A stretch of 64,000 nt of DNA from Bdellovibrio sp. (GCA_036676395.1 JAKFCY010000002.1:64001-128000), one strand, 5' to 3'; shown: positions 8,891-20,502, counted from the first letter of the stretch. A program made the numbers and translations. The notes: generated by a model not told the origin, from the sequence alone.

Positions 8891-10063
8891 TTAATGCATG
8901 TTAATAACAACTTTAATGCAATCATCTTTTTGATCGTTAAACAGTTGATAGGCTTTGGGTGTGTCTTGTAAATTTATACGATGAGTGATCACAAATGATG
9001 GATCAATTTCACCCCGAATAATTTTATTTAACAAAAGCGGCATATATTTTTGAGTGTGGGTTTGTCCCATTTTAAAAGTCAGGCCTTTTCCGAAAGCTGC
9101 ACCAAAAGGCATTTTATCTAAAACACCGCCATACACCCCAGGTATCGAAACTGTTCCACCTTTTTTACAAGCTTGAATGGCTTGGCGTAAAGCATCGGGT
9201 CTGTCAGTGGCCAATCCTACAGCCATTTTTGCACGGTCTAACGTAGCTGTGATCGAATGACCATGAGCTTCCATACCAACAGCATCAATGCATGAATCTG
9301 GCCCCCGGCCACCCGTCAGATAACTTAATTCATCAAGCACACTGTCTGTGTTTTCAAAATTAATTGTGTGAGCTTTACTTAGTTGGGCCATTTCAAGTCG
9401 TTTATCAAAATGATCAATGGCAATAACCCGCTCTGCACCTAACATGTATGCACTTCGAATAGCCATCTGAGCCACTGGGCCTGCTCCCCAAATAGCAACT
9501 GTATCACCGGGTTTAATATTGCAATTTTCTGCAGCCATATAACCCGTGGGTAAAATATCACTTAAAAATAAAACTTTTTCATCAGGAATACCGTCAGGGA
9601 TCACTAATGAATTTGTATCGACAAAGGGTACGCGTATATATTCAGCTTGTCCGCCGGCATAACCGCCATACATATGTGAATAACCAAATAAAGCAGCACC
9701 TGAATGGCCATATAATTTATCTGCAAGATATGTATTTGGATTCGTGTTGTCGCAACTTGAGTACTCTTCAATTTCGCAATGATGGCAACTGCCACAGGCA
9801 ATATCAAAAGGAATCACAATGCGATTACCTAGTTCAACTTTTTTAACTAACTTACCGATGGCGACAACTTCGCCCATGGTTTCATGACCGAGAATATCGC
9901 CTTTTTCCATTGTGGGAATCGTGCCATTATAAATATGCAAATCAGATCCACAAATGGCGGCACTGGTTACTTTAACGATGGCGTCGTGTGGATTAAGAAT
10001 TTGCGGTTCTTTAACGTTACGTAAAGCGACTTCATGTTTTCCGAACCAGCATAATGCTTTCAT
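8891..10063 (-). CDS. Zn-dependent alcohol/formaldehyde dehydrogenase (YbdR-like MDR)
   Basis: CGSDLH, GHE, CxxCxxC...C, GAGPV, GGRGPD. Confidence 0.92.
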
Positions 10064-10071
10064 ATTAACTC

Positions 10072-10650
10072 CTAATGTTTTATTTCGGGTGCAAGGTCTT
10101 CTTCGCGACCAGATGGCTGGCCTTTGGTTGTCGGAACTTCGCCGGTTTCTAAATAAGCTTTTAAGCGGGTCAGATTTGTTAACATAATCGAGTCGGGATC
10201 TTCGCCGACTAATTGTGTAGCGATTTTTCCGATTTTTCCGGCAGGAATCGTATAAGCCATATGTAAACGAACAATTGTTCCGTATTCTTGGGGGGCTTTA
10301 GTAAACCAAATGGTTCCGGCTTGTTGCACTTCGGTTTTTCCGACAGTTTTCCAAGACAGCATTTCTGCATATTTTTCTTCGACGATTTCAGCATCCCATT
10401 CTACTATTGGTCCGTGTTCAAGCTGAACTACCCAATGAGACATCGATTCTGAATGCACGGTCAGAGAAACTAAATCTTTCATAAAATAAGGAAGATTTCC
10501 GAAATTACGAAAAAAAGTATAAATTTCAGCCGGCGATTTTTTAATCGTGATTGAACGATGAATTTTTTCTTCATCTTTTAATTTGCGCGCCATGAGTGCA
10601 TTACTATCGTATTTGGTGCGCTCTGTTTTTAGCTGATTGGTGTTCTGCAT
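10072..10650 (-). CDS. SRPBCC/polyketide-cyclase family protein
   Basis: SITI..P..Y.F...[28 protein letters not shown]. Confidence 0.88.
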
Positions 10651-10660
10651 GTTTAATCCT

Positions 10661-12265
10661 TTAAATAATTGGAACGTCAGTCACTCGTGGATATTGCTTT
10701 TCGACAGGAATAAAATCGGGCTCGATAAATTCGTCGCTATCTATTTTTTTAAGATCTTGTACGGCCGGTCCCTCTAAAACTTTGCCATAACAATCAAAGC
10801 GCGATCCATGGCAAGGGCAGTCCCACGATTTTTCGACGTTATTCCACGAGACAACGCCCCCCAGATGTGGACAAGCGGCTGACATGTAGTGCGCAACACC
10901 TGATTGATTTTTATAGACGGCTACCATACTCATGCCATCACGAAATACACTGCCTTCGTTTATACGCAAGTCATCTAGATCTGGTTTTGGACTAAATGAA
11001 AGCCATTTGCCGTATTGACCAGCCACATTTAAATTTTCTCTGAAGTAATTTGGCGTTGAAAGTAAACTAATTCGCGAAGGATTATATAAATCCTCCCACG
11101 GATTTTCTCGTTGCATGATTTGATCAGTGACAATCATCGCGCCAATAGTGCTATGGGTAATCCCGTTACCGGCATCGCCGGTGATAACATACACATTGTC
11201 GCGATCAAGCGGGTTGTGGCCTAAAAAGCCAATGCCATCAACCGGTTCCATGACTTGGCCCGACCAGCGATAAACCAAATTTACAATGGTTGAAAAGCGG
11301 GCGCGCGCCCATTCTTCAAGTTTTAAAAAGCTATGTTCGGGATGATTTTCTTGTCCGGTTTTGTGATCTTCGCCGCCAATAATTAATAAATCATATTTAT
11401 CAGCTGGAATTTTTTCAAGCCGAATGTAACGATAAGGATCACTGGTATCCCAGTATAAACCTTTGGCCACGCTGTCTTTGATGACATGAAATCCGATAGC
11501 ATAAGTGCGATAGGGAGCTTGTTTGGTGTGAATCGCAAATACATCATTCACCGGAGTATTAGTTGCGACTACAAGTGATGAACAAGTAACGATGGCGCCA
11601 TTTTGAGTTTTAACAGCTGCAAAATCACGATTATGAAATTCAATAGCATGTGTGTGTGTAAAAATTCTACCACCGCCTTCAACAATCGCGTGTGCAAGGC
11701 CTGCTAAATATTTTGCGGGGTTAAATTGCAATTGGCGTGGAAACGATAAGCAATGACCGGTTTTAAAATTTGTCAGCGGTGCATTTTCTAACATTTTTGC
11801 ATAAATTAAACCAGCTCTGCGAACAGCATGATGTTCGCGCATTAGTACATCGCTTTCTGAATCATCGCCTTGAAATAAATAACCGGTAAGACGTTCTAAT
11901 TCACAGTCTATTTTTTCGCGGTTCACAATTTGCTCGATGCGATCAAGAGCGGCCGTGTGGCTTTGGGCGATTAGGCGTGTGCCTTCTTCGCTGTGATACA
12001 TTTCTAAATCAAAATAGCGTGTGCCTAAGACACTTGACCCATGCGCAGTTGTTCGACCAGATTGGCCGCTACCAATTTCAAAACTTTCAAGCACGCAAAC
12101 GGATTTTCCTTCTTTCATCAGCGAATACGCCGTTGTTAATCCGGCAAAGCCCCCCCCGACGATACAGACATCAACATTTATGTTTTCTTTGAGCAGCTCA
12201 AAGGTTGGCATCTCAACGGTGTCTAACCATACTGACAGGCTTTCGCCAGGATGTAACTGATTCAT
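10661..12265 (-). CDS. FAD-dependent oxidoreductase with C-terminal Rieske domain (YhfW-like)
   Basis: GGGFAG dinucleotide motif, GRTTAH, Rieske CPHLG...WDCPCHGS. Confidence 0.93.
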   Translation of the reverse strand: MNQLHPGESLSVWLDTVEMPTFELLKENINVDVCIVGGGFAGLTTAYSLMKEGKSVCVLESFEIGSGQSGRTTAHGSSVLGTRYFDLEMYHSEEGTRLIAQSHTAALDRIEQIVNREKIDCELERLTGYLFQGDDSESDVLMREHHAVRRAGLIYAKMLENAPLTNFKTGHCLSFPRQLQFNPAKYLAGLAHAIVEGGGRIFTHTHAIEFHNRDFAAVKTQNGAIVTCSSLVVATNTPVNDVFAIHTKQAPYRTYAIGFHVIKDSVAKGLYWDTSDPYRYIRLEKIPADKYDLLIIGGEDHKTGQENHPEHSFLKLEEWARARFSTIVNLVYRWSGQVMEPVDGIGFLGHNPLDRDNVYVITGDAGNGITHSTIGAMIVTDQIMQRENPWEDLYNPSRISLLSTPNYFRENLNVAGQYGKWLSFSPKPDLDDLRINEGSVFRDGMSMVAVYKNQSGVAHYMSAACPHLGGVVSWNNVEKSWDCPCHGSRFDCYGKVLEGPAVQDLKKIDSDEFIEPDFIPVEKQYPRVTDVPII

Positions 12266-12342
12266 AAAATTCCTTTTTTATTCAAACATTATTTTTTTAC
12301 GGCTTAGGCTAAGCTTTATCTGTAGTCTTTTTGCAAAACTTG

Positions 12343-12359
12343 TTGCAAAACTTGTTCCC
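12343..12359 (-). promoter_or_regulatory. Putative sigma54 promoter for the yhfW-SRPBCC-ybdR operon
   Basis: GGGAACAAGTTTTGCAA = GG-N10-GC. Confidence 0.7.
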
Positions 12360-12392
12360 GCGCAGATAAGGCTGCCACCGGGGAATTTTGCC

Positions 12393-12409
12393 TAGGAATA
12401 TTTTTTGCT
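12393..12409 (+). promoter_or_regulatory. Putative sigma54 promoter for GSP26 gene
   Basis: TAGGAATATTTTTTGCT = GG-N10-GC. Confidence 0.65.
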
Positions 12410-12446
12410 AAATAAGAAAGGGTTAATACTTTACGAAAGGCTTTTT

Positions 12447-12956
12447 ATGAAAAATGAATTAAAAAAATCTCCGACCGAAGATCTGCGTATCATTGGCGAG
12501 ATTATCGATAGCGCAGGCATTTGCATGTTGACCACACACAATCATGCCGGCGGGCTTTGTAGCCGGCCAATGTATACGCAAGAGCTTGATGAAAATGGCA
12601 ACATCTGGTTTTTTACGTCTTCAGGTTCGCATCTTGTTTCAGAAATTCGAAATAATCACCAGGTTCATCTTACCTACACGGCCGGAAAAGAAAAATTTGT
12701 CGCAGCCTCTGCATTGGCTCACGAGGTTTTTGATCGCGCGCGCATGATTCAATTATGGACGCCAATGATGAAAGCTTGGTTTCCGCAAGGTATCGAAACA
12801 CCAGATTTAGTTTTATTACGTTTAGAATTGCAAGATGTTGAATATTGGGATGCTCCAAGTTCGCCGGTGGTTAAAGTGGCGGGATTTTTTAAATCTATGG
12901 TCAGCAATGAACCGTACAAACCAGCCCACCACGAGAAAGTAAATTTACATCATTAG
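12447..12956 (+). CDS. General stress protein 26 / pyridoxamine-oxidase-like FMN-binding protein
   Basis: CMLTT...SRPM, IWFFT, LW.P..KAWFP.G...PDL, EYWD; start at ATG 12447. Confidence 0.88.
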   Translation: MKNELKKSPTEDLRIIGEIIDSAGICMLTTHNHAGGLCSRPMYTQELDENGNIWFFTSSGSHLVSEIRNNHQVHLTYTAGKEKFVAASALAHEVFDRARMIQLWTPMMKAWFPQGIETPDLVLLRLELQDVEYWDAPSSPVVKVAGFFKSMVSNEPYKPAHHEKVNLHH

Positions 12957-12980
12957 ATATTACTGCGGCTTCGCCACAAG

Positions 12981-13247
12981 TTATGATGTTAGGTTTTGAA
13001 TTTTTTCTTGAATAGGACGATCTATCATGAAATGCCCTTGCGTTTTGGCGCAATGGGCACTGCAGTAAAATTCGCCCTCAGCCTCAACGCCATGACCAAT
13101 GATTAAAGTATTACAGCACGAACAATGTGGAGCTAGTTTTGAAATGGCGCATTCAAAACAATCAAATACGTGCTCTTCACCATTCATTTTAACCGTAAAA
13201 GCTTTGTCATAGTTGTTGCCGCATTTTTCACAAGTTTGCATTTCCAT
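12981..13247 (-). CDS. Small Cys-rich prokaryotic metallothionein-like protein
   Basis: CEKCGN.YDKAF, FDCFECAI..LAP.C..C..IIGHGVE, YCSAHCA; 9 Cys. Confidence 0.8.
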   Translation of the reverse strand: MEMQTCEKCGNNYDKAFTVKMNGEEHVFDCFECAISKLAPHCSCCNTLIIGHGVEAEGEFYCSAHCAKTQGHFMIDRPIQEKIQNLTS

Positions 13248-13259
13248 GGTATTCCTTTT

Positions 13260-13793
13260 TTATCTAACGGTTGATTTAATGACTCCGCAGGCAATGCGTG
13301 GAGCTGATTTTTTAGTTTTATCGTCAGGTCCGGCATGCACAATGATGGCCCGGTCAGTAATGCTATAAGTACCACTGACGGCGCCGCTAATTGATAATTG
13401 TGAAACTGAAAAGCTGCCTTCAGCCGTGCCAGTTCTATTACTGCTAATTTGTGGCAGATCACCGGCGTATAAATCCGGAAAATCCAATGAGGTGCCATGA
13501 CCTTCGTGGCCAGGCAGCTTGGCATAGTGTGCACCGGCAGATTTGCCATCGACAGATGAACAATCTGGTTTTTCATGAATGTGTAAACCAAATTTTTTTT
13601 TGTTGGGTAAGTTTTTAATTTTATAAATAACGTTAAGCTTGTCTCGATCTTGAATAAAATCAATTTGTCCCGAGACTTGCGATCCATTTTTAGGTTGTAA
13701 TTCAGCAGTCAATTTTTCGTTAATAGTTGGTGCGGCGAAAGCTAAAGTCGCGCCGAAACAGGCCGCAATAAAAGAAAACGCAGATGTTTTCAT
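13260..13793 (-). CDS. sodC: Periplasmic Cu/Zn superoxide dismutase
   Basis: Signal peptide, GLHIHE, SAGAH, GDLP, IVHAGPDD, RIACGVI; ATG 13793 with AGGAG SD. Confidence 0.9.
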   Translation of the reverse strand: MKTSAFSFIAACFGATLAFAAPTINEKLTAELQPKNGSQVSGQIDFIQDRDKLNVIYKIKNLPNKKKFGLHIHEKPDCSSVDGKSAGAHYAKLPGHEGHGTSLDFPDLYAGDLPQISSNRTGTAEGSFSVSQLSISGAVSGTYSITDRAIIVHAGPDDKTKKSAPRIACGVIKSTVR

Positions 13794-13806
13794 TGTTCTC
13801 CTGATA

Positions 13807-13849
13807 AAATAAAAAAGACCAGATACTAGACATCTCGTATCAGGCCTTT
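13807..13849 (-). terminator. Terminator-like hairpin in the sodC leader
   Basis: AAAGGCCTGATAC...GTATCTGGTCTTT stem followed by a U-run on the minus strand. Confidence 0.6.
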
Positions 13850-13973
13850 CGCGGTTACTATGAGTATCAGTCATTGTAGTCGCGATTGTCTCTGCGAGGC
13901 ATTAATTGCATTATTTTCGACAAGCGAATTAATGAATTTCTGCCCTCCATGTCACATTGACGAAATTAGATAA

Positions 13974-13990
13974 TGCAGGGGTTGTGCCAG
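13974..13990 (-). promoter_or_regulatory. Putative sigma54 promoter (near consensus)
   Basis: CTGGCACAACCCCTGCA. Confidence 0.8.
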
Positions 13991-14024
13991 CATCAGAAGA
14001 AATTTAAGCGAATTTCAAGTGGCT

Positions 14025-14060
14025 AAAAAAAGAAATCGCCCCGGGTGTAGGGGGCGATTT
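14025..14060 (-). terminator. Rho-independent terminator after small ORF 14126-14320
   Basis: AAATCGCCCC...GGGGCGATTT followed by CTTTTTTT on the minus strand. Confidence 0.75.
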
Positions 14061-14125
14061 GATCACGCGAACTCAGAGATAGCTAAGTTGCCTTAGCTAT
14101 CTCTGAAACTGCAGTGAATTAAAAT

Positions 14126-14320
14126 TTAGATGGGTGCTGGTAATCGGCGACGCTGATTGCGCTCTTTAAGCTTATTAAAAAAATTAATATCGCCAGATAA
14201 TAGTTTGCGTGTGTTCTCAACCAAAACATTGCGAACTTGCAAAGGTGATTTTTTGTTTTTCGTTTTGCGCGTAACAGCTTTTGCGCGACGTTTTAAAATA
14301 TTTTGGGCCATTTTCTTCAT
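14126..14320 (-). CDS. Small highly basic hypothetical protein
   Basis: 64 aa, AAGGAG SD, own sigma54-like promoter and terminator. Confidence 0.7.
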   Translation of the reverse strand: MKKMAQNILKRRAKAVTRKTKNKKSPLQVRNVLVENTRKLLSGDINFFNKLKERNQRRRLPAPI

Positions 14321-14366
14321 AAGCTTTCTCCTTACTCAGTCGATGAGTTTGATAGTTTTTAAAAGG

Positions 14367-14382
14367 AGCAAACAATATGCCG
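14367..14382 (-). promoter_or_regulatory. Putative sigma54 promoter
   Basis: CGGCATATTGTTTGCT. Confidence 0.75.
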
Positions 14383-14484
14383 CACGAGGGTTTTGTAATT
14401 CTTGTCCAGACTTCTAGCAAAAACAGTCCGTATCAAAAAATCTTAACCGAAAACAGCCTAAATAATAGGATGTTTAAATTATAC

Positions 14485-14523
14485 GGGGAATAATTCTACT
14501 TTTTTCTTGGGGAAATTTTCTAC
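14485..14523. promoter_or_regulatory. Tandem candidate activator (bEBP) binding sites
   Basis: GGGGAATAATTCTAC (14485) and GGGGAAATTTTCTAC (14509), 24 bp apart. Confidence 0.55.
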
Positions 14524-14565
14524 GTATGTTACAGCTTCGCTATAAATAAGAGGGGATTTATAAGC

Positions 14566-15969
14566 ATGAAAAAAGCAAAGATCTTAATGATTGATGATGA
14601 TAAAGATATTCAAGAACTTATCTCTAGTTTTTTTAAAGTTCGTAACTACGATGTGATCTGTTACGACGACGCGCAAACAGCCTTAGAAGACATCAGCAGC
14701 GCCAAAGTTAAAGGTGACGTGATTATCACTGACTTAATGTTGCCAGGTATTTCAGGGATCGAATTCACACAGCGCCTAAAAGTTTTGGGTAGCGAAATAC
14801 CGATTATTTTAATCACGGCTAACAAAAAAGTAGAAACTGCAGTTGAAGCCATCGCTGCCGGCGCTTATGACTTCGTTGTTAAGCCATTACATTTTCCACA
14901 ATTATTAGTTTCAGTTGAAAGGGCCCTTTATTTAACACGTGTTGAAGAAGAAAACTCGACTCTTAAGTCTGTAGTGCAGTTGCAAGAAGGGCATAACAGT
15001 CTAGAGGGTATTATCGGTAAAAGTGCAGGTATCAAAAATGCGCTAGAGTTGGCTCGCCGGGTCTCGCAATCAAATGCCAATATTTTAATTACCGGCGAGA
15101 GCGGCGTTGGTAAAGAAGTCATCGCGAAAGCCATTCATAATATGGGTTCACGTAAAAAAGCTCCGTTCGTCGCAATCAATTGTTCGGCAATTCCTGAAAA
15201 TCTTTTAGAGTCAGAGCTATTCGGACATTCTAAAGGGGCCTTCACCGGAGCGATCGATAAAAAAATGGGTTTATTTGAAGAAGCCGATGGCGGAACTTTA
15301 TTCTTAGACGAGATCGGTGATTTAACGTTGCCATTACAGGCAAAAATTCTACGTGTTTTACAAGAAAAGAAAATTAAACGTATTGGTGAAAATCAATACC
15401 GCAACGTGAATGTTCGTATTTTGTCAGCAACCCATAAGAACTTACGCCAAGAGATTATTGATCGTAATTTTCGCGAAGATTTATTTTTTCGATTAAATGT
15501 GATTCCGATTTGGATTCCGCCTTTACGAGAACGTAAAGAAGATATCTTGCCACTTTCAGAATTTTTCTTACGTAAATATTCAGCGTTAAATAACACCAAG
15601 ATCAAGCAGTTCAGCAAAGAGGCCCATGACTATTTGGCTACGAATGCTTGGCCGGGTAACGTGCGTGAACTTGAAAACACGATTGAGCGGGCGATTGTTC
15701 TTTCTAATTCGGCCTTAATTCGCTTAGAAGACGTGTGTTCTGCTGAAAACCGCAGTTCTGGCGAAAATAAAGAAGAGGCTGGTTTACGCTTTCCTGCCTT
15801 TGGTAATGCCAAGGTGCTAACTGTTGAGCAGTTAGTTAATAAGTACGTGCAGCATGTGTTAGATCTAAATAACGGCGCTAAAGAAAAGACCGCACGTGAT
15901 CTGCAGATCGACCGTAAAACGCTCTACAGACGCCTACGCGAGATCGATAACCATCAGCTAGAGCACTAG
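14566..15969 (+). CDS. NtrC-family sigma54-dependent response regulator (REC-AAA+-HTH)
   Basis: REC (IDDD, TDLMLP, VKP), Walker A GESGVGKE, GAFTGA, LFLDEIG, WPGNVREL, Fis-type HTH. Confidence 0.96.
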   Translation: MKKAKILMIDDDKDIQELISSFFKVRNYDVICYDDAQTALEDISSAKVKGDVIITDLMLPGISGIEFTQRLKVLGSEIPIILITANKKVETAVEAIAAGAYDFVVKPLHFPQLLVSVERALYLTRVEEENSTLKSVVQLQEGHNSLEGIIGKSAGIKNALELARRVSQSNANILITGESGVGKEVIAKAIHNMGSRKKAPFVAINCSAIPENLLESELFGHSKGAFTGAIDKKMGLFEEADGGTLFLDEIGDLTLPLQAKILRVLQEKKIKRIGENQYRNVNVRILSATHKNLRQEIIDRNFREDLFFRLNVIPIWIPPLRERKEDILPLSEFFLRKYSALNNTKIKQFSKEAHDYLATNAWPGNVRELENTIERAIVLSNSALIRLEDVCSAENRSSGENKEEAGLRFPAFGNAKVLTVEQLVNKYVQHVLDLNNGAKEKTARDLQIDRKTLYRRLREIDNHQLEH

Positions 15970-15980
15970 GGTGGTTGCAT

Positions 15981-16019
15981 AAAAAAGCCTTCTACAGTTT
16001 GGTAGAAGGCTTTTTTTTT
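15981..16019. terminator. Bidirectional intrinsic terminator
   Basis: AAAAAAGCCTTCTAC-agtttg-GTAGAAGGCTTTTTTTTT between convergent genes. Confidence 0.9.
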
Positions 16020-16035
16020 ACAAAAAATTATAAAA

Positions 16036-16314
16036 TTAAACGTGGGCGTTTTGAATGGCTGTAGAAAATTTTTCGACCAGCTCTTTTAATTGCGTTAGGT
16101 CTTTGGCTTTTGCCGCTTGTTCCATAGCCACGGCTACACCTGTCAGTTCATCAAAGCCAAAAGTGACTGCATTACCCTTAATTTGATGACCAATGCGCTC
16201 TAAAAAACCAAAATCCTGCTTAGATACGGCTTCCTGACAAGCTGTTATATCTTGTTTGCGGCGATCTAAATATTTTTGGCGAGCCTCAATGGGAACTTGC
16301 ATGGTATCTATCAT
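16036..16314 (-). CDS. Hpt (histidine phosphotransfer) protein
   Basis: IGHQIKGNAVTFGF motif, 92 aa helical. Confidence 0.88.
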   Translation of the reverse strand: MIDTMQVPIEARQKYLDRRKQDITACQEAVSKQDFGFLERIGHQIKGNAVTFGFDELTGVAVAMEQAAKAKDLTQLKELVEKFSTAIQNAHV

Positions 16315-18448
16315 AATTATCCTTGGCTTTTAAAGCAACTTTTCTGGCTGATATGTCTTTTGTTGAGTCATTAACGATGGTTAAGATTTGTTTTATAAGG
16401 GTGTCTTGGCTGACAGGTTTTGTTATTAAGCCTATGCATCCTGATTCAAGACTGCTTTTCTTTTCTGCTGATGAGGCATGGGCAGTCAGGGCTATAATTG
16501 GATTTTTAAATCCTTCAATACGCAAACGGCGAGTGGCCTCCAAGCCATCCATTTGCGGAAGCTGAATATCCATCAATATTAAGTCGTAGTCTTCTTCGCG
16601 CACGCGACGAATGGCAGAAATTCCATTATCAACAACATCGGGTATAGCTCCTACCGAGCGTAAGAAGAATTCAAAGATTTCCTGGTTATCCTCAGAGTCT
16701 TCCACAATGAGAATTCTTTTTCCGGCCAATTGGTTGTAATTCTGCAATTGGCTTGAAGCTTTCGCTTGCGCGATTTCTGTCATTACCGTTTCTGACCACT
16801 TTACATTTTCAATTTCACCGCAGGGTATTTTTAATTCAAAAGTTGAGCCCCGGCCAATACGGCTATCAATCAAAGTAACATCGCCGCCGAATTGCTGGGC
16901 CATTCGTTTCGAAACAACAAGTCCTAATCCTATGCCGCCAAAACGACGAGTACTTGAAACGTCGGCCTGTGAAAAAGATTGAAATAAATCAGCTTGATCC
17001 TGTTTAGAAATACCGATGCCAGTATCTTTCACGCGAATAGTGATAAATTTCTGTCCGGTCGGGCTTGATTCAATTTTAAAATGTACGCTGACGCCACCGT
17101 TTTCGGTAAATTTAACGGCATTGCCTAAAAGATTTGTCATGACTTGTTTAACGCGGGATTCAGCGGCGATAACGTATTCAGGTAAAGCCCCTTCGCTTGA
17201 AATATTAAATTTAATACTTTTAGCATCAGCGCGATTATTCATCGTGACCAAGACACCTTCAAATAATGATCTCAACGAAATATTTTGTGTCGTGATCATT
17301 ATTTTACCAAATTCGATATTTGAAATATCTAAGATATTATCAATGATACCGGTTAAGTGAGAGCTGTTTTTTTGGATATTTTCGATAAGAACGTGACGCT
17401 CATTCTGATTTTCGGTTCGGCTTAATATTTCAGAATACCCAGTGATCGCGTTTAGCGGCGTGCGAATTTCGTGACTCATGTTCGCTAAAAATGCTGATTT
17501 CATGCGATTAGATTCTTCGAGTAACAGTTTTTCTTTAGCTTCATGGTGAATAGTGTTTTCAAATTGTTTAAAAAAGCTTAGCAGTAGCCCAATAACTAAG
17601 ACTGTGGCTAAAGCCACAATATGGCCCAGATAGCGATCGCTGAGCGAAAGAAAGCCAGGCATGGCCACGGCGGTGATCTTCCAGCGTTTGCCATATAAAT
17701 CAATTTCTTGAATTTTGTGAAATGATTCGCTGTTCACGCTCTGTGGAAAACGTGTGTAAGCTAAAGTCTCTTTCTGGGTTTCAGGATCAATCAAAGTTAA
17801 CGAAAAATTCACATGCTCTTTATGGGGATTTGGCTGCCCCAGAATATTCGTAAATAGATCATCCATTGTTACCGGAATATATATTAAACCCAGTGATTTT
17901 TGCTGACGTTCTTTAATTGAGCCAGGTGTTTGCAATTGGCCAAAATACGGTAGCGTTAAAGTCATCGAGAATTTCTGGTAGTTATTTTTAGAGGTCTCTG
18001 TTTTGAACGGATAAGTTAAGGTAATAGAAGTTGCGTGGAGCGCATTTAAGATATCGGTTTTATGACTGTTGGGCAGTCGTTGCGCAAGTTTTTTTAATTG
18101 TGCACGTGATGAAAAGCCTAAACCAACTAGCTTATAGGTATCTGATTGCCCCTGTAAATTTTCACTGAAGCTACGAAAGTGTCTATGATCAGGTAGCTGA
18201 GCATGATGGGTATCAAGGTGGGCGCGGGTGTAAGCTAAAGAAAAAGCGTAAGTATTTAAACTGTTCGCTAAAGCCGACGTCATTGATTCAGTTTCAAACT
18301 CGAGGCGATGATTCACATCTTTTTGAATTGATTTGTGGATATGAGTCCAAGAGATAAAGCCAATGATAGTAAGACCGGCGATAAGCGCGGTGAAGATCTC
18401 CTTATCAAAGAAGACTGAAAATGTATTTTTAAGAAAAGACTTTGCCAT
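16286..18448 (-). CDS. Hybrid sensor kinase with CHASE-like input and C-terminal receiver
   Basis: TM-periplasmic (ends LYGKRWKI)-TM, FLANMSHEIRTPL, GNAVKFT, DTGIG, GGIGLGL, REC (VEDSED, MDIQLP); start at ATG 18448. Confidence 0.92.
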   Translation of the reverse strand: MAKSFLKNTFSVFFDKEIFTALIAGLTIIGFISWTHIHKSIQKDVNHRLEFETESMTSALANSLNTYAFSLAYTRAHLDTHHAQLPDHRHFRSFSENLQGQSDTYKLVGLGFSSRAQLKKLAQRLPNSHKTDILNALHATSITLTYPFKTETSKNNYQKFSMTLTLPYFGQLQTPGSIKERQQKSLGLIYIPVTMDDLFTNILGQPNPHKEHVNFSLTLIDPETQKETLAYTRFPQSVNSESFHKIQEIDLYGKRWKITAVAMPGFLSLSDRYLGHIVALATVLVIGLLLSFFKQFENTIHHEAKEKLLLEESNRMKSAFLANMSHEIRTPLNAITGYSEILSRTENQNERHVLIENIQKNSSHLTGIIDNILDISNIEFGKIMITTQNISLRSLFEGVLVTMNNRADAKSIKFNISSEGALPEYVIAAESRVKQVMTNLLGNAVKFTENGGVSVHFKIESSPTGQKFITIRVKDTGIGISKQDQADLFQSFSQADVSSTRRFGGIGLGLVVSKRMAQQFGGDVTLIDSRIGRGSTFELKIPCGEIENVKWSETVMTEIAQAKASSQLQNYNQLAGKRILIVEDSEDNQEIFEFFLRSVGAIPDVVDNGISAIRRVREEDYDLILMDIQLPQMDGLEATRRLRIEGFKNPIIALTAHASSAEKKSSLESGCIGLITKPVSQDTLIKQILTIVNDSTKDISARKVALKAKDNYDRYHASSH

Positions 18449-18588
18449 ACAGTTGTTTGGTTTTTTACACAGGGCAAAGGGGGGATTCAAAAAATTAATT
18501 TAATATAATTTTAATGGGGCAAATTTCACCAAAGCACCCAATTAAATCACTAAATTGGGCACTTTGTCGCAGTATTTGATTACAAAAA

Positions 18589-18780
18589 TTACAAAGACTG
18601 CTCAAGGCGTAGCAAACGGTGCTCGATCATTCGAGTCATGGGTATGACATAGTCATGAAGAACTCGTTTTGAAAACTCTTTTATGCGTGTCGTGGCTGTA
18701 GAGGTCGTTGAACGATGGGTCGCTGTTTTTTTATCGTTACGTGTGTCTGCGCGATGATGTTTTTTTTGAGTTTTGGTCAT
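18589..18780 (-). CDS. Small basic hypothetical protein
   Basis: 63 aa, GGAGG SD, sigma54-like promoter, downstream hairpin 18530-18566. Confidence 0.65.
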   Translation of the reverse strand: MTKTQKKHHRADTRNDKKTATHRSTTSTATTRIKEFSKRVLHDYVIPMTRMIEHRLLRLEQSL

Positions 18781-18820
18781 AATTGCCTCCGTAGTTTGAA
18801 AAATAATATTGTAAGCGCTA

Positions 18821-18837
18821 TTGCAATTTGAAAGCCG
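18821..18837 (-). promoter_or_regulatory. Putative sigma54 promoter
   Basis: CGGCTTTCAAATTGCAA. Confidence 0.65.
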
Positions 18838-18846
18838 CGAAGCTGT

Positions 18847-18862
18847 TGGAAAGAATTTTGCT
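18847..18862 (+). promoter_or_regulatory. Putative sigma54 promoter
   Basis: TGGAAAGAATTTTGCT. Confidence 0.65.
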
Positions 18863-18876
18863 TAACTAAGTTTATT

Positions 18877-19485
18877 ATGGTGAACAAACCCGCTTATGGA
18901 CGTGATTTTGACCGCGATAAGAACCTAACCTATCGACCACAGGATGAATCCGGCGATTTGGAACATATTTCGCCGTTCTTTGCCCCAATGCCCAGACCAG
19001 ATAGTGTAGTTAATATTATCATCCGACAGCATCAAGAATTACGTGAATACATTCATGTGTTTAAGATGGCCAATTCTACTCCTGCAGAAAAGCAGACTGC
19101 ACTGCTTGATTTTGTAAATCTGTGGCTGGCTCATGCGCAAGCCGAAGAAAATACGCTTTATGAAGAGGTCACCTTTTCTTCTGAATTAAAACCACTTCTG
19201 GATGAAGCTTTTGAAGAACATGCGATCGCCCAAATTTTAATTGAAGAGCTCGAAGCCTTAAACTTTCGTTTAAACTGGAATTCTATGATTCAAATCAAAG
19301 CAAAGACTTTGGCTGAAGTTGTCGAACACCATCTTAAAAATGAAGAAGAAACCTATTTAAAATTAATTTTAGATTTACTTCCGCAAGAAGACCTGCAATT
19401 ACTCGGGCGCGAGTTCGTACGCCAATTTGAAGCAATTGCAGCTCATAACAAAGTCTCGCTTAAACCTTCGCGCGTTTTATCTTAA
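18877..19485 (+). CDS. Hemerythrin/HHE cation-binding domain protein
   Basis: QH, HAQAEE..LY, EEH, HHLKNEE. Confidence 0.85.
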   Translation: MVNKPAYGRDFDRDKNLTYRPQDESGDLEHISPFFAPMPRPDSVVNIIIRQHQELREYIHVFKMANSTPAEKQTALLDFVNLWLAHAQAEENTLYEEVTFSSELKPLLDEAFEEHAIAQILIEELEALNFRLNWNSMIQIKAKTLAEVVEHHLKNEEETYLKLILDLLPQEDLQLLGREFVRQFEAIAAHNKVSLKPSRVLS

Positions 19486-19493
19486 CCGCTATC

Positions 19494-19802
19494 TTAGTAG
19501 TGATGCTGCGAAGCCTTTGTTTGTAGATGGCGAGGCGCTACATTAGAACTAATTTTTTCTAACATTCTTTTAAAAAATATTTTTACTTTTTTACTAAAAG
19601 GATCGTTTTCAAACCAACCCCAATCAGCATTGTATTCAGGAGTGACTCCTCCTTCGTCTTCCCATTTTTCGAGTTGTAATTCTGTAGGTTCTGGATGCTG
19701 ACGTTGTAAAAATTTATCGAACTGTGCTTCTGGATTGGCCGGTTTAAAGTATTTTTCATCTGGCACTTGGTGTGCGGGGTGAAGAGTTTTATCGTTGCCC
19801 AT
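19494..19802 (-). CDS. Small hypothetical protein with WEDEGG motif
   Basis: 102 aa, AAGGAG SD, sigma54-like promoter. Confidence 0.65.
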   Translation of the reverse strand: MGNDKTLHPAHQVPDEKYFKPANPEAQFDKFLQRQHPEPTELQLEKWEDEGGVTPEYNADWGWFENDPFSKKVKIFFKRMLEKISSNVAPRHLQTKASQHHY

Positions 19803-19843
19803 AAATGCTCCTTAGTTTTTCTTCGCACTAACTAGAAATATAA

Positions 19844-19860
19844 TTGCAAACTTAAGGCCT
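19844..19860 (-). promoter_or_regulatory. Putative sigma54 promoter
   Basis: AGGCCTTAAGTTTGCAA. Confidence 0.65.
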
Positions 19861-19893
19861 GCGTCAGTTTGTGGAACTATGCCCTGTATCGCG

Positions 19894-19909
19894 TGGTTAT
19901 TAAATTGCA
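19894..19909 (+). promoter_or_regulatory. Putative sigma54 promoter
   Basis: TGGTTATTAAATTGCA. Confidence 0.65.
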
Positions 19910-19938
19910 GATTAAATGACAGATGCAGGAGTAAGCTT

Positions 19939-20502
19939 ATGGAAAAAAATATAAATGGCTCAAATTCAGTATTTAATATTCAAGAAATTCGTCGTCATGC
20001 AATGACATCAATGAATCAAGGTGCGGTGACTGGTGATTATCCATTAGATATAGAAAAAGCCTGCCAAATTTTAAATGAAGCTTTAGCCACCGAAATTTTA
20101 TGTGTGTTGCGATACCGCCATCATGCGATCGTAGCTAAAGGTATTAATTTTCCGCAAGTTGCGGCTGAATTTAAAAACCATGCGGCCAATGAAGACGAAC
20201 ATGTCTGGGCTTTGGCTGAACGTATTGATCAGCTGGGCGGTGATCCTGATATGAATCCTGCAACGATTGGGGCCCGATCAGCAACTGAGTACGGAAGCTC
20301 TGGCGATCTCTTAGAAATGATTCGCGAAGATTTAGTCGCCGAACGTATCGTGATTGAAGTTTATCGCCAAATGATTGATTGGTTTGGGCATAATGATCCA
20401 ACGACAAGACGATTGCTTGAAAAAATATTGGCCGACGAAGAAGAGCACGCTAATGATTTGGCCGATTTGTTAGTCACTGCAAGCCGTAAAAATTTAAATT
20501 AA
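19939..20502 (+). CDS. Ferritin-like (bacterioferritin/DPS-like) protein
   Basis: ALATE..CVLRY..H, EDEH, ERI.QLGG.P, EDLVAER, DPTTRR, DEEEHA; ATG 19939 with AGGAG SD. Confidence 0.9.
   Translation: MEKNINGSNSVFNIQEIRRHAMTSMNQGAVTGDYPLDIEKACQILNEALATEILCVLRYRHHAIVAKGINFPQVAAEFKNHAANEDEHVWALAERIDQLGGDPDMNPATIGARSATEYGSSGDLLEMIREDLVAERIVIEVYRQMIDWFGHNDPTTRRLLEKILADEEEHANDLADLLVTASRKNLN

Follow-up and report, generated by a model that had tools for sequence, protein, structure and literature searches.

General stress responses are the textbook case of control by alternative sigma-70-family factors: SigB in Bacillus, RpoS in Gammaproteobacteria and EcfG-PhyR in Alphaproteobacteria, where the factor is controlled via partner switching or proteolysis. 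Sigma-54 promoters, for their part, are silent without an activator, and phosphorelays ending in such activators are known from Vibrio, in which the hybrid kinases LuxN, LuxQ and CqsS signal via the Hpt protein LuxU to the NtrC-type activator LuxO and further, with sigma-54, to the Qrr small RNAs, and from Caulobacter, in which ShkA, ShpA and TacA form a dedicated relay of hybrid kinase, single-domain Hpt and sigma-54 activator (TacA controls stalk and developmental genes, and ShkA is cytoplasmic and regulated by c-di-GMP). Here we analyze a locus in 64,000 nt of DNA from Bdellovibrio sp. (GCA_036676395.1 JAKFCY010000002.1:64001-128000), hereafter the window, in whose positions all coordinates are given; the region studied is 8891-20502. 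Within these 12 kb a predator of the Pseudobdellovibrio group carries a hybrid kinase, an Hpt protein, a sigma-54 activator, eight stress-protection units and an abundant small RNA. We consider it rather probable (about 70%), judging from sequence comparison, that this locus forms the core of a phosphorelay-controlled sigma-54 regulon.

Related arrangements are described in the accessible parts of several reports. The multi-step relay NmpRSTU of Myxococcus xanthus ends in the NtrC-like enhancer-binding protein (EBP) NmpR and controls oxygen-related genes, with a regulon that includes hemerythrin; NmpR binds tandem GCGCA-N5-TGCGC sites upstream of sigma-54 promoters and is autoregulated (PMC11841059). 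Another M. xanthus EBP, Nla28, was proposed to be a general stress regulator (PMC9765219), and in Borrelia, as far as the accessible text goes, Rrp2-RpoN switches on RpoS. For Bdellovibrio bacteriovorus, the accessible text describes merRNA and attack-phase small RNAs as very abundant and terminated, some of them lacking a FliA promoter (PMC3627812).

Predicted relay proteins, promoters and shared motif

The three regulatory genes lie in the centre of the region:

16286..18448, minus strand: hybrid histidine kinase with a periplasmic CHASE-like sensor (Pfam CHASE, HisKA, HATPase_c and C-terminal REC)
16036..16314, minus strand: stand-alone Hpt protein of 92 amino acids (Pfam Hpt PF01627, E 3e-11)
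14566..15969, plus strand: NtrC-type enhancer-binding protein, REC - AAA+ - HTH_8 (Pfam)

All signature motifs of the CHASE-like hybrid kinase, the Hpt protein and the intact NtrC-type activator that a first-pass annotation of this DNA had reported were present. The activator matched PF00158 (E 3e-71), PF00072 (E 5e-26) and PF02954 (E 9e-6; 25.8 bits, cut-off 22), retains GAFTGA at residue 224, ESELFGH, DEIG and an intact Walker B motif, and is 60-99% identical to its orthologues in relatives. The phospho-accepting H43 of the Hpt protein, in HQIKG (HxxKG), is kept in five of five genomes. In the kinase, the CHASE domain lies between transmembrane segments 31-49 and 286-304, and the H-box HEIRTP is found at residue 340; its CHASE match (31.9 bits, cut-off 25) covers model positions 94-187 only, and orthologues in the relatives L005 and L010 gave full CHASE matches (E 1.5e-29 and 3.8e-24). 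The open reading frame (ORF) of the kinase is open to TTG at 18490, the ATG at 18448 being the likely start. Judging from adjacency and co-conservation, phosphate would flow from the kinase to the Hpt protein and on to the activator.

The eight units around these genes are each preceded by a relaxed -24/-12 element, defined as xGG-N9-TGC[AT] (GG and GC 10 nt apart) and oriented to the gene:

12344..12359, minus strand: element of the DAO operon (GGGAACAAGTTTTGCA); GG and TGC kept in 5/5 genomes
12394..12409, plus strand: element of the GSP26-like gene (AGGAATATTTTTTGCT); GG and TGC kept in 5/5 genomes
13974..13989, minus strand: element of the RNA/SodC unit (TGGCACAACCCCTGCA); near the strict consensus, conserved
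14367..14382, minus strand: element of orf64 (CGGCATATTGTTTGCT); conserved
18822..18837, minus strand: element of orf63 (CGGCTTTCAAATTGCA); conserved
18847..18862, plus strand: element of the hemerythrin gene (TGGAAAGAATTTTGCT); conserved
19845..19860, minus strand: element of orf102 (AGGCCTTAAGTTTGCA); conserved
19894..19909, plus strand: element of the ferritin gene (TGGTTATTAAATTGCA); conserved, in relatives preceding a BON gene and the ferritin gene

In 8/8 units the element lies 15-80 nt 5' of the start codon in the correct orientation. The same pattern was found before 7.3% of 3127 ORFs, or 8.8% of the 1518 ORFs with at least 40 nt of intergenic DNA (background ORFs being crude calls of at least 70 amino acids on contigs C2 and C3). 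Six intergenic regions were aligned between the window and four syntenic genomes (L021, L022, L027 and L028). GG and TGC proved invariant at 40/40 sites (8 units in 5 genomes), while flanks and spacers vary or carry indels; the pattern used for this count itself requires GG and TGC, and the aligned columns show the same letters independently. At six more distant loci, namely genus members with an activator 70-81% identical and a representative of another family (L010, 60%), near-consensus TGGCAY-N5-TTGCW promoters surround the orthologous activator and precede hemerythrin, BON, CsbD/DUF1328, PLD, small response regulator and Hpt genes. Sigma-70-like sites were not enriched in the region (26 vs 30.8 expected), nor were terminators in the same scan (14 vs 11.6 expected). 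Taken together, these comparisons support the assignment of the window's promoters to a conserved, putatively sigma-54-dependent type, and the earlier statement that such an element precedes every unit held for all eight.

The -12 element of the hemerythrin gene lies 15 nt from a conserved ATG, therefore the predicted mRNA would be nearly leaderless. A 12-nt tandem duplication (ACAAGTTTTGCA twice, 12332-12355, minus strand) copies the -12 half of the DAO promoter; it is specific to the window and does not occur in the four aligned relatives. A near-consensus candidate at 19761-19776 on the plus strand (TGGCACTTGGTGTGCG), inside orf102 on the opposite strand, was rejected in favour of 19894-19909, as it lacks conservation in L003 and probably arose by chance.

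A motif shared by the units was learned by expectation-maximisation on 160 nt upstream of 22 promoters in relatives, with the window excluded. It comprises 17 nt, is TGTGGAAAATTGCCCCA-like and TGCCCCA-like and often reads GGGGAAWWWTTC; its information content was 11.87, as compared with 9.18 +/- 0.80 (maximum 10.55) for 25 random upstream sets. Its start in relatives is found 53-96 nt 5' of the -24/-12 element, a distance usual for enhancers. The region studied contains five sites of at least 14 bits:

12379..12395, strand not specified: motif site 1 (GGGGAATTTTGCC), between the divergent DAO and GSP26 promoters; 14.0 bits, kept in 5/5 genomes
14484..14524, strand not specified: two tandem motif sites (GGGGAATAATTCTAC and GGGGAAATTTTCTAC, starts 14484 and 14508); 14.4 and 18.8 bits, kept in 5/5 genomes
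18515..18531, strand not specified: motif site 4, before the kinase-Hpt operon; 16.8 bits, conserved
19870..19886, strand not specified: motif site 5, between the back-to-back orf102 and ferritin promoters; 14.0 bits, conserved

The tandem sites lie 102-142 nt upstream of the -24 element of orf64, a canonical placement for that promoter, and ~40-80 nt upstream of the start codon of the activator, and site 4 overlaps the -35 hexamer of a sigma-70-like promoter (GTGAAA-16-TATATT, 18529..18502). Since the sites at 14484-14524 and 18515 stand before the activator gene and the kinase-Hpt operon, their placement suggests that the regulators may be autoregulated. With the window-blind position weight matrix, four distinct positions of at least 14 bits were found in the 1,159 intergenic bases of the region and 13 in the other ~195 kb of intergenic DNA, a roughly 50-fold enrichment based on crude ORF calls. 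These data support a putative link between the units through the shared upstream motif.

The genome of the window (3.4 Mb, 99% complete) has as its closest named relatives 'Bdellovibrio sp. qaytius' (activator 93% identical) and Pseudobdellovibrio sp. HCB154 (91%). The whole region is kept in L020, L021, L022, L027 and L028 and partly in L026. The flanks are also syntenic in relatives, therefore the region is a piece of conserved chromosome and not an inserted island, as it had been called. At more distant loci the trio of activator, Hpt protein and CHASE kinase persists and the cargo turns over, comprising hemerythrin, BON, CsbD, DUF883, DUF1328, YflT, PLD, SodC, Dps, PPK2/CHAD, FMN reductase and DAO-Rieske genes; in metagenome-assembled genomes beyond the genus, DUF1328, Usp, GSP26-like and hemerythrin genes are found beside the activator. 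Hemerythrin genes adjoin the regulators in L004, L005, L006, L010 and L045. Among the 23 loci whose activator reaches 63% identity or more, 21 have an Hpt homologue in the fetched flanks; the identity of two of these matches is as low as 23%, and the two loci without a match include a contig of 3.4 kb. Thus, the co-conservation of regulators and cargo expected from the first-pass annotation was found by synteny, the trio accompanying stress-type cargo throughout the genus as well as in a second family.

Beside the Hpt gene of L004, L005, L007, L008, L010 and L043 there is a single-domain response regulator of ~160-180 amino acids with its own sigma-54 promoter, which is absent from the window and its subclade and could serve as a phosphate sink or a feedback branch.

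A second cluster of motif matches was revealed on contig C3 of the same genome (G000:C3:438000-457000, L013, and C3:594000-602329, L012), where pairs of motif and sigma-54-like element precede a LOG-like gene, a phosphoribosyltransferase-OsmC operon and a DUF4440 gene; these are regarded as leads only. In the same part of the contig, at G000:C3:449011-451035, a HAMP hybrid kinase is encoded that shares 45% full-length identity with a kinase inside the L010 cluster, which hints that several kinases may feed one Hpt protein, as in Vibrio. With such motif-promoter pairs and an orthologous second hybrid kinase on another contig, the system is probably not self-contained, as had been proposed.

The genome has one rpoN (TIGR02395, 447 bits vs cut-off 277) and five sigma-70-family genes only, encoding RpoD, FliA, an RpoH-like protein of 377 amino acids and two ECF sigmas; the same sigma-70-family set is listed for B. 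bacteriovorus HD100 in the accessible part of Lambert et al. (PMC3464611). No protein of the genome reached the curated cut-offs for RpoS or SigB (PhyR was not specifically searched for); the first-pass annotation had asked whether rpoS is lacking. In terms of the classes of stress response known elsewhere, the promoters here are of sigma-54 type instead of being served by a dedicated sigma-70-family factor of the SigB/RpoS/EcfG kind, and protective cargo of the general-stress-protein type is present both in the window (GSP26-like, Dps-like and SodC) and in the orthologous clusters (BON, CsbD, DUF883, YflT, Usp and PLD).

The RNA before sodC and the effector genes

The promoter at 13974-13989 does not lead directly into a protein-coding gene:

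13804..13965, minus strand: structured RNA of ~160 nt, with a hairpin and U-run just 5' of the SodC ribosome-binding site

The 160-170 nt between this promoter and sodC are more conserved than the adjacent coding DNA and contain a 1-nt indel, therefore they are not coding; the terminator hairpin and U-run end about 25 nt before the sodC start. The RNA folds into conserved hairpins, with covariation at 5/51 pairs in five close genomes and at 12/37 pairs when two distant copies were added. These two copies (56.8 and 44.3 bits), one of them ~1.3 kb from an Hpt gene, have TGGCA[TC]-N5-.TGCA upstream, a terminator, and downstream genes unlike those of the window. Consequently, keeping promoter and terminator and not the neighbours, the RNA behaves as a stand-alone gene, and a sigma-54 promoter was located upstream of every copy inspected.

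The covariance model matched 9/52 genomes of the genus. Model R1, run on 24 sources, matched the window and eight RNA loci (L071, L073-L079) and none of 15 mid-distance loci; model R2 matched four of 151 genomes of the order, all four within the genus and none outside it; BLAST in 41 relatives matched three genomes. In Rfam 15, covering Qrr, 6S, riboswitches and leaders, no family was found (best 16.1 bits vs cut-off 45), and a scan of the whole region with Rfam gave nothing near a gathering score. An identification as 6S RNA was ruled out, since the 6S RNA of this genome lies at C3:162450.

The RNA was detected in a soil metatranscriptome (X1), in which the two bins over it had a mean word depth of ~31,000 and the other 28 bins 0 to 5.2, neighbouring genes staying at or below 12; a ratio of this size cannot be DNA carry-over. 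The fragments are delimited by adapter junctions near 13833-13854 and 13951-13954. The data come from one run, kept as contigs and sharing 0.06 of sampled words, which gives no strand, true ends or mRNA levels; its bins without cover carry no information. For sodC to be expressed, transcription would then have to pass the terminator or start from a separate sodC promoter. The sodC promoter called in the first-pass annotation is thus present as a near-consensus element; what had been missed is that it would first drive a conserved, terminated RNA of ~160 nt.

The effector genes are as follows:

8891..10063, minus strand: Zn-dependent alcohol/formaldehyde-dehydrogenase-like gene (YbdR-like), last of a three-gene operon (Pfam ADH_N, ADH_zinc_N)
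10072..10650, minus strand: SRPBCC (polyketide cyclase/dehydrase-like) gene (Pfam Polyketide_cyc, E 4e-8)
10661..12265, minus strand: FAD oxidoreductase and Rieske gene (YhfW-like), heading the operon (Pfam DAO, E 4e-47; Rieske, E 2e-11)
12447..12956 (ORF from 12405), plus strand: PNPOx-like gene of the 'general stress protein 26' (GSP26) type (Pfam Pyrid_ox_like, E 2e-40)
12981..13247, minus strand: Cys-rich gene of 88 amino acids, 3' of SodC; cysteines conserved
13260..13793 (ORF to 13874), minus strand: periplasmic Cu/Zn superoxide dismutase SodC (Pfam Sod_Cu, E 2e-26)
14126..14320, minus strand: orf64, small basic orphan, 62-100% identical in six relatives; terminator 14033-14060
18589..18780, minus strand: orf63, small basic orphan, 60-95% identical in relatives
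18877..19485, plus strand: hemerythrin-domain protein (Pfam Hemerythrin, E 2e-10)
19494..19802, minus strand: orf102, lineage-restricted orphan of 102 amino acids with a conserved WEDEGG motif
19939..20502 (ORF from 19879), plus strand: Dps-like ferritin (Pfam Ferritin, E 3e-29)

Pfam bore out each domain call made previously for 8891-20502, and the eight effector units described around the central regulators are all there. The designation of the Cys-rich protein as a metallothionein was not upheld, as Metallothio_Pro (PF02069) gave E=1.1 and 9.9 bits vs a cut-off of 33; its nearest ESM Atlas clusters are auto-named 'Metallothionein' (score 0.96), which is a lead only. The YbdR-like protein scored 203 bits with NCBIfam fdhA_non_GSH, under the cut-off of the model. 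A DAO-Rieske homologue, 43% identical, adjoins the regulators in L010. The GSP26-like protein matched PDB 2i02, 'general stress protein of COG3871' (E 1e-26), its PDB relatives being named COG3871/GSP26, and the closest PDB entry to the ferritin was 8w1d, 'DPS-like protein' (E 1.5e-47). Translation of SodC likely starts at the predicted signal peptide MKTS.

For orf64 (64 amino acids), orf63 (63) and orf102 (102), no family was found in Pfam or NCBIfam. Differences among five genomes at codon positions 1/2/3 numbered 103/48/223, 174/87/307 and 135/109/384, respectively; this bias to the third position, the same as in the Hpt gene, indicates that all three are real coding genes. Among 5.8 billion clusters, orf102 has relatives in 16 only, all at least 66% identical, and orf64 gave no lead in the Atlas (best score 0.76).

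Several side features deserve record. A perfect palindrome with 14-bp arms (CAGAGATAGCTAAG..CTTAGCTATCTCTG, 14074-14105) lies between the stop codon of orf64 and its terminator; all five genomes keep it, L021 with a single compensatory change, and it could be an RNA hairpin of the 3' untranslated region or a protein-binding site. The hemerythrin of the window's subclade has a 44-residue N-terminal extension which the shorter homologues in L004 and L006 lack. In the interval that corresponds to 19803-19938, most syntenic relatives, namely L002/L020 (L020 99% identical), L003, L022, L027 and L028, have a small BON-domain gene after the shared promoter and before the ferritin gene; it is missing from the window and L021, which suggests its loss by two independent deletions that fused the promoter to the ferritin gene.

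The proposed regulon and its rivals

In the reading we prefer, a hybrid kinase of the membrane, whose periplasmic sensor is of the CHASE type, would autophosphorylate, its own receiver would hand the phosphate to the Hpt protein of 92 amino acids, and the latter would pass it to the receiver of the NtrC-type activator; the activated protein would bind GGGGAAWWWTTC- or TGCCCCA-like sites and open sigma-54 promoters using ATP. The predicted outputs would be oxidative and metal protection (SodC with the Cys-rich protein, the Dps-like ferritin and hemerythrin), the GSP26-type flavoprotein, the redox operon and three orphans, with the abundant terminated RNA of ~160 nt between a sigma-54 promoter and sodC as a further one. 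This output would presumably amount to a broad stress or prey-free-survival programme replacing the missing RpoS/SigB-type response, and on the sequence data the label 'general stress' is plausible for it.

A number of facts weigh against such a regulon. Its protein-coding part would rest on sequence comparison, the sole RNA run consisting of contigs. The strict TGGCAC-N5-TTGC scan (at most one mismatch) showed no enrichment (5 in the window vs 4.07 expected, two of the five inside the region studied), and the -24 half is weak in 7/8 of the promoters, where it is reduced to GG, the one on the SodC side (1/8) fitting the strict consensus with at most one mismatch. Sites 12379-12395 and 19870-19886 lie only 7-20 nt from the -24 elements of divergent pairs, a spacing too close for ordinary enhancer looping and hence an unusual EBP geometry, and the orf63/hemerythrin pair, with a spacer of 96 nt, has no motif of at least 12 bits. 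Outside the region, 5 of ~18 intergenic motif matches have an adjacent relaxed sigma-54 element. The recognition helix (IDRKTLYR+L; IDRKTLYRRL in the activator) is near-identical in a paralogue 59% identical to the activator and in more distant EBPs, so the activator is one candidate binder of the motif, assigned to it by adjacency. Finally, the cargo in the window is mostly related to oxygen, iron and reactive oxygen, for which a narrower signal would be as likely as 'general' stress.

The last point leads to the rival that survives best, which we hold to be possible, at clearly less than even odds: the wiring would be the same and the response a narrow one to oxygen, iron and reactive oxygen, analogous to Myxococcus NmpRSTU-NmpR. 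SodC, the Dps-like ferritin, hemerythrin, the flavoprotein and the Rieske oxidoreductase in the window fit such a response, as does the fact that hemerythrin is the cargo most often kept beside the regulators, in the five loci named above; NmpR itself, in the accessible text, is a phosphorelay-fed EBP over oxygen-related genes (PMC11841059). However, in relatives the orthologous activator is accompanied by BON, CsbD, DUF883, DUF1328, YflT, PLD, PPK2/CHAD and Usp genes, that is, by osmotic, desiccation and general-stress types, several of them with sigma-54 promoters; candidate sites also precede OsmC and LOG-like genes elsewhere in the genome, and the motif is unlike the GCGCA-N5-TGCGC given for NmpR in the part of that report available.

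It is unlikely that the local activator controls only some of the sigma-54 promoters, with the 59%-identical paralogue or other EBPs serving the rest and the cluster being a meeting place of circuits. The genome has about 12 EBPs, among them the paralogue with its near-identical recognition helix; some promoters lack a well-placed upstream motif; and the second orthologous hybrid kinase, elsewhere in this genome, lies inside the cluster in L010. Against it, the motif occurs at five sites in four intergenic regions of the locus (one of the five, before the kinase-Hpt operon, without a sigma-54 element) and in the orthologous clusters of six other genomes, and no motif of at least 13.5 bits was found near the locus of the paralogue. 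That the GG-N10-GC elements and the motif are due to chance or an unrelated factor, with ordinary sigma-70 genes standing near a two-component system, is very improbable: the unenriched strict consensus and weak -24 halves would fit it, yet elements at 8/8 units vs a background of 7-9%, 40/40 sites conserved between variable spacers, textbook sigma-54 promoters at the orthologous clusters and unenriched sigma-70-like sites speak against it.

Returning to the relay-driven sigma-54 regulon, the first-pass proposal of a stress regulon wired to RpoN is sustained by conserved sigma-54 promoters, by co-conservation of regulators and cargo and by the shared motif; it did not stand as to self-containment, and the relay layout was already known. 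Tentatively, and with considerable doubt, a broader scenario can be drawn. Pseudobdellovibrio, and perhaps Bdellovibrionota, may lack RpoS, SigB and PhyR-EcfG and may have built a general stress or prey-free-survival response on sigma-54, in which CHASE and HAMP kinases would feed one Hpt protein and through it the activator; the cargo would be modular and fast-evolving, the top output would be a new sigma-54-dependent small RNA of ~160 nt, parallel to LuxO-Qrr, and some promoters would be activated from a site abutting -24.

How bacteria without general-stress sigma factors organise stress protection is a question to which the locus offers a concrete answer for a predatory lineage. Sigma-54 promoters being silent without an activator, a stress regulon placed on them would switch all-or-none, which may suit an organism alternating a non-growing hunting phase with growth on prey. 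New here are the abundant sigma-54-linked small RNA and the putative activator sites abutting -24, which provide material for studies of sigma-54 mechanism, and relatives are available in culture, namely Bdellovibrio qaytius and Pseudobdellovibrio sp. HCB154.

Comparison with known systems

No description of the architecture was known to the first-pass annotation. Its relay-to-EBP layout is known from LuxU-LuxO, ShpA-TacA and NmpRSTU, and an EBP acting as a stress regulator has its precedent in Nla28. Searches of open-access text found no account of a sigma-54 stress regulon in Bdellovibrio-like organisms, nor of cargo of the CsbD/BON/GSP26 type tied to sigma-54. When the supplementary tables of PMC3627812 were searched for hemerythrin, CsbD, general stress and Hpt, they gave only rpoN (Bd0843, RPKM 169 and 271 in the two columns of the table) and one superoxide dismutase. 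The merRNA of B. bacteriovorus has a c-di-GMP riboswitch, whereas the window RNA has no Rfam match; no link was made between the latter and the attack-phase small RNAs, no homologue outside the genus being found in 151 genomes.

With the Vibrio LuxU-LuxO system the locus shares a hybrid kinase, a stand-alone Hpt protein, an NtrC-type activator and sigma-54 targets that include a small RNA. The proteins of the window are not orthologues of LuxO and LuxQ, as the NCBIfam models gave 349 bits vs a cut-off of 800 and 272 vs 1200, respectively; its sensor is of the CHASE type, its targets are mostly protein-coding stress genes and its RNA matches no Qrr. The three-protein layout is the same as in Caulobacter ShkA-ShpA-TacA, but the window combines a membrane-bound CHASE sensor kinase with stress-protection cargo.

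The two M. xanthus systems are compared as far as their accessible accounts allow. NmpRSTU-NmpR resembles the locus in the relay-fed EBP, tandem sites, hemerythrin and autoregulation (which in the window is only suggested). It differs in that neither an Hpt protein nor a CHASE kinase appears in that account, where the regulon is presented in terms of oxygen utilisation and its genes are scattered instead of being clustered round the regulators. Nla28 is likewise an EBP with a proposed role as stress regulator, from a lineage once classified together with Bdellovibrio; unlike the activator of the window, it is described there as having a conventional two-component partner, an 8-bp direct-repeat site and promoters that are mostly intragenic, with targets mostly regulatory or developmental and not the classic cargo of the CsbD/BON/Dps/GSP26 type.

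With the responses run by SigB, RpoS and EcfG the locus and its relatives overlap in cargo, namely GSP26/YdaG-like, Dps, CsbD, YflT, OsmC, BON/OsmY, DUF883 and superoxide dismutase proteins. The difference lies in the promoters, which in the window are of the sigma-54 type and would require an ATPase activator.

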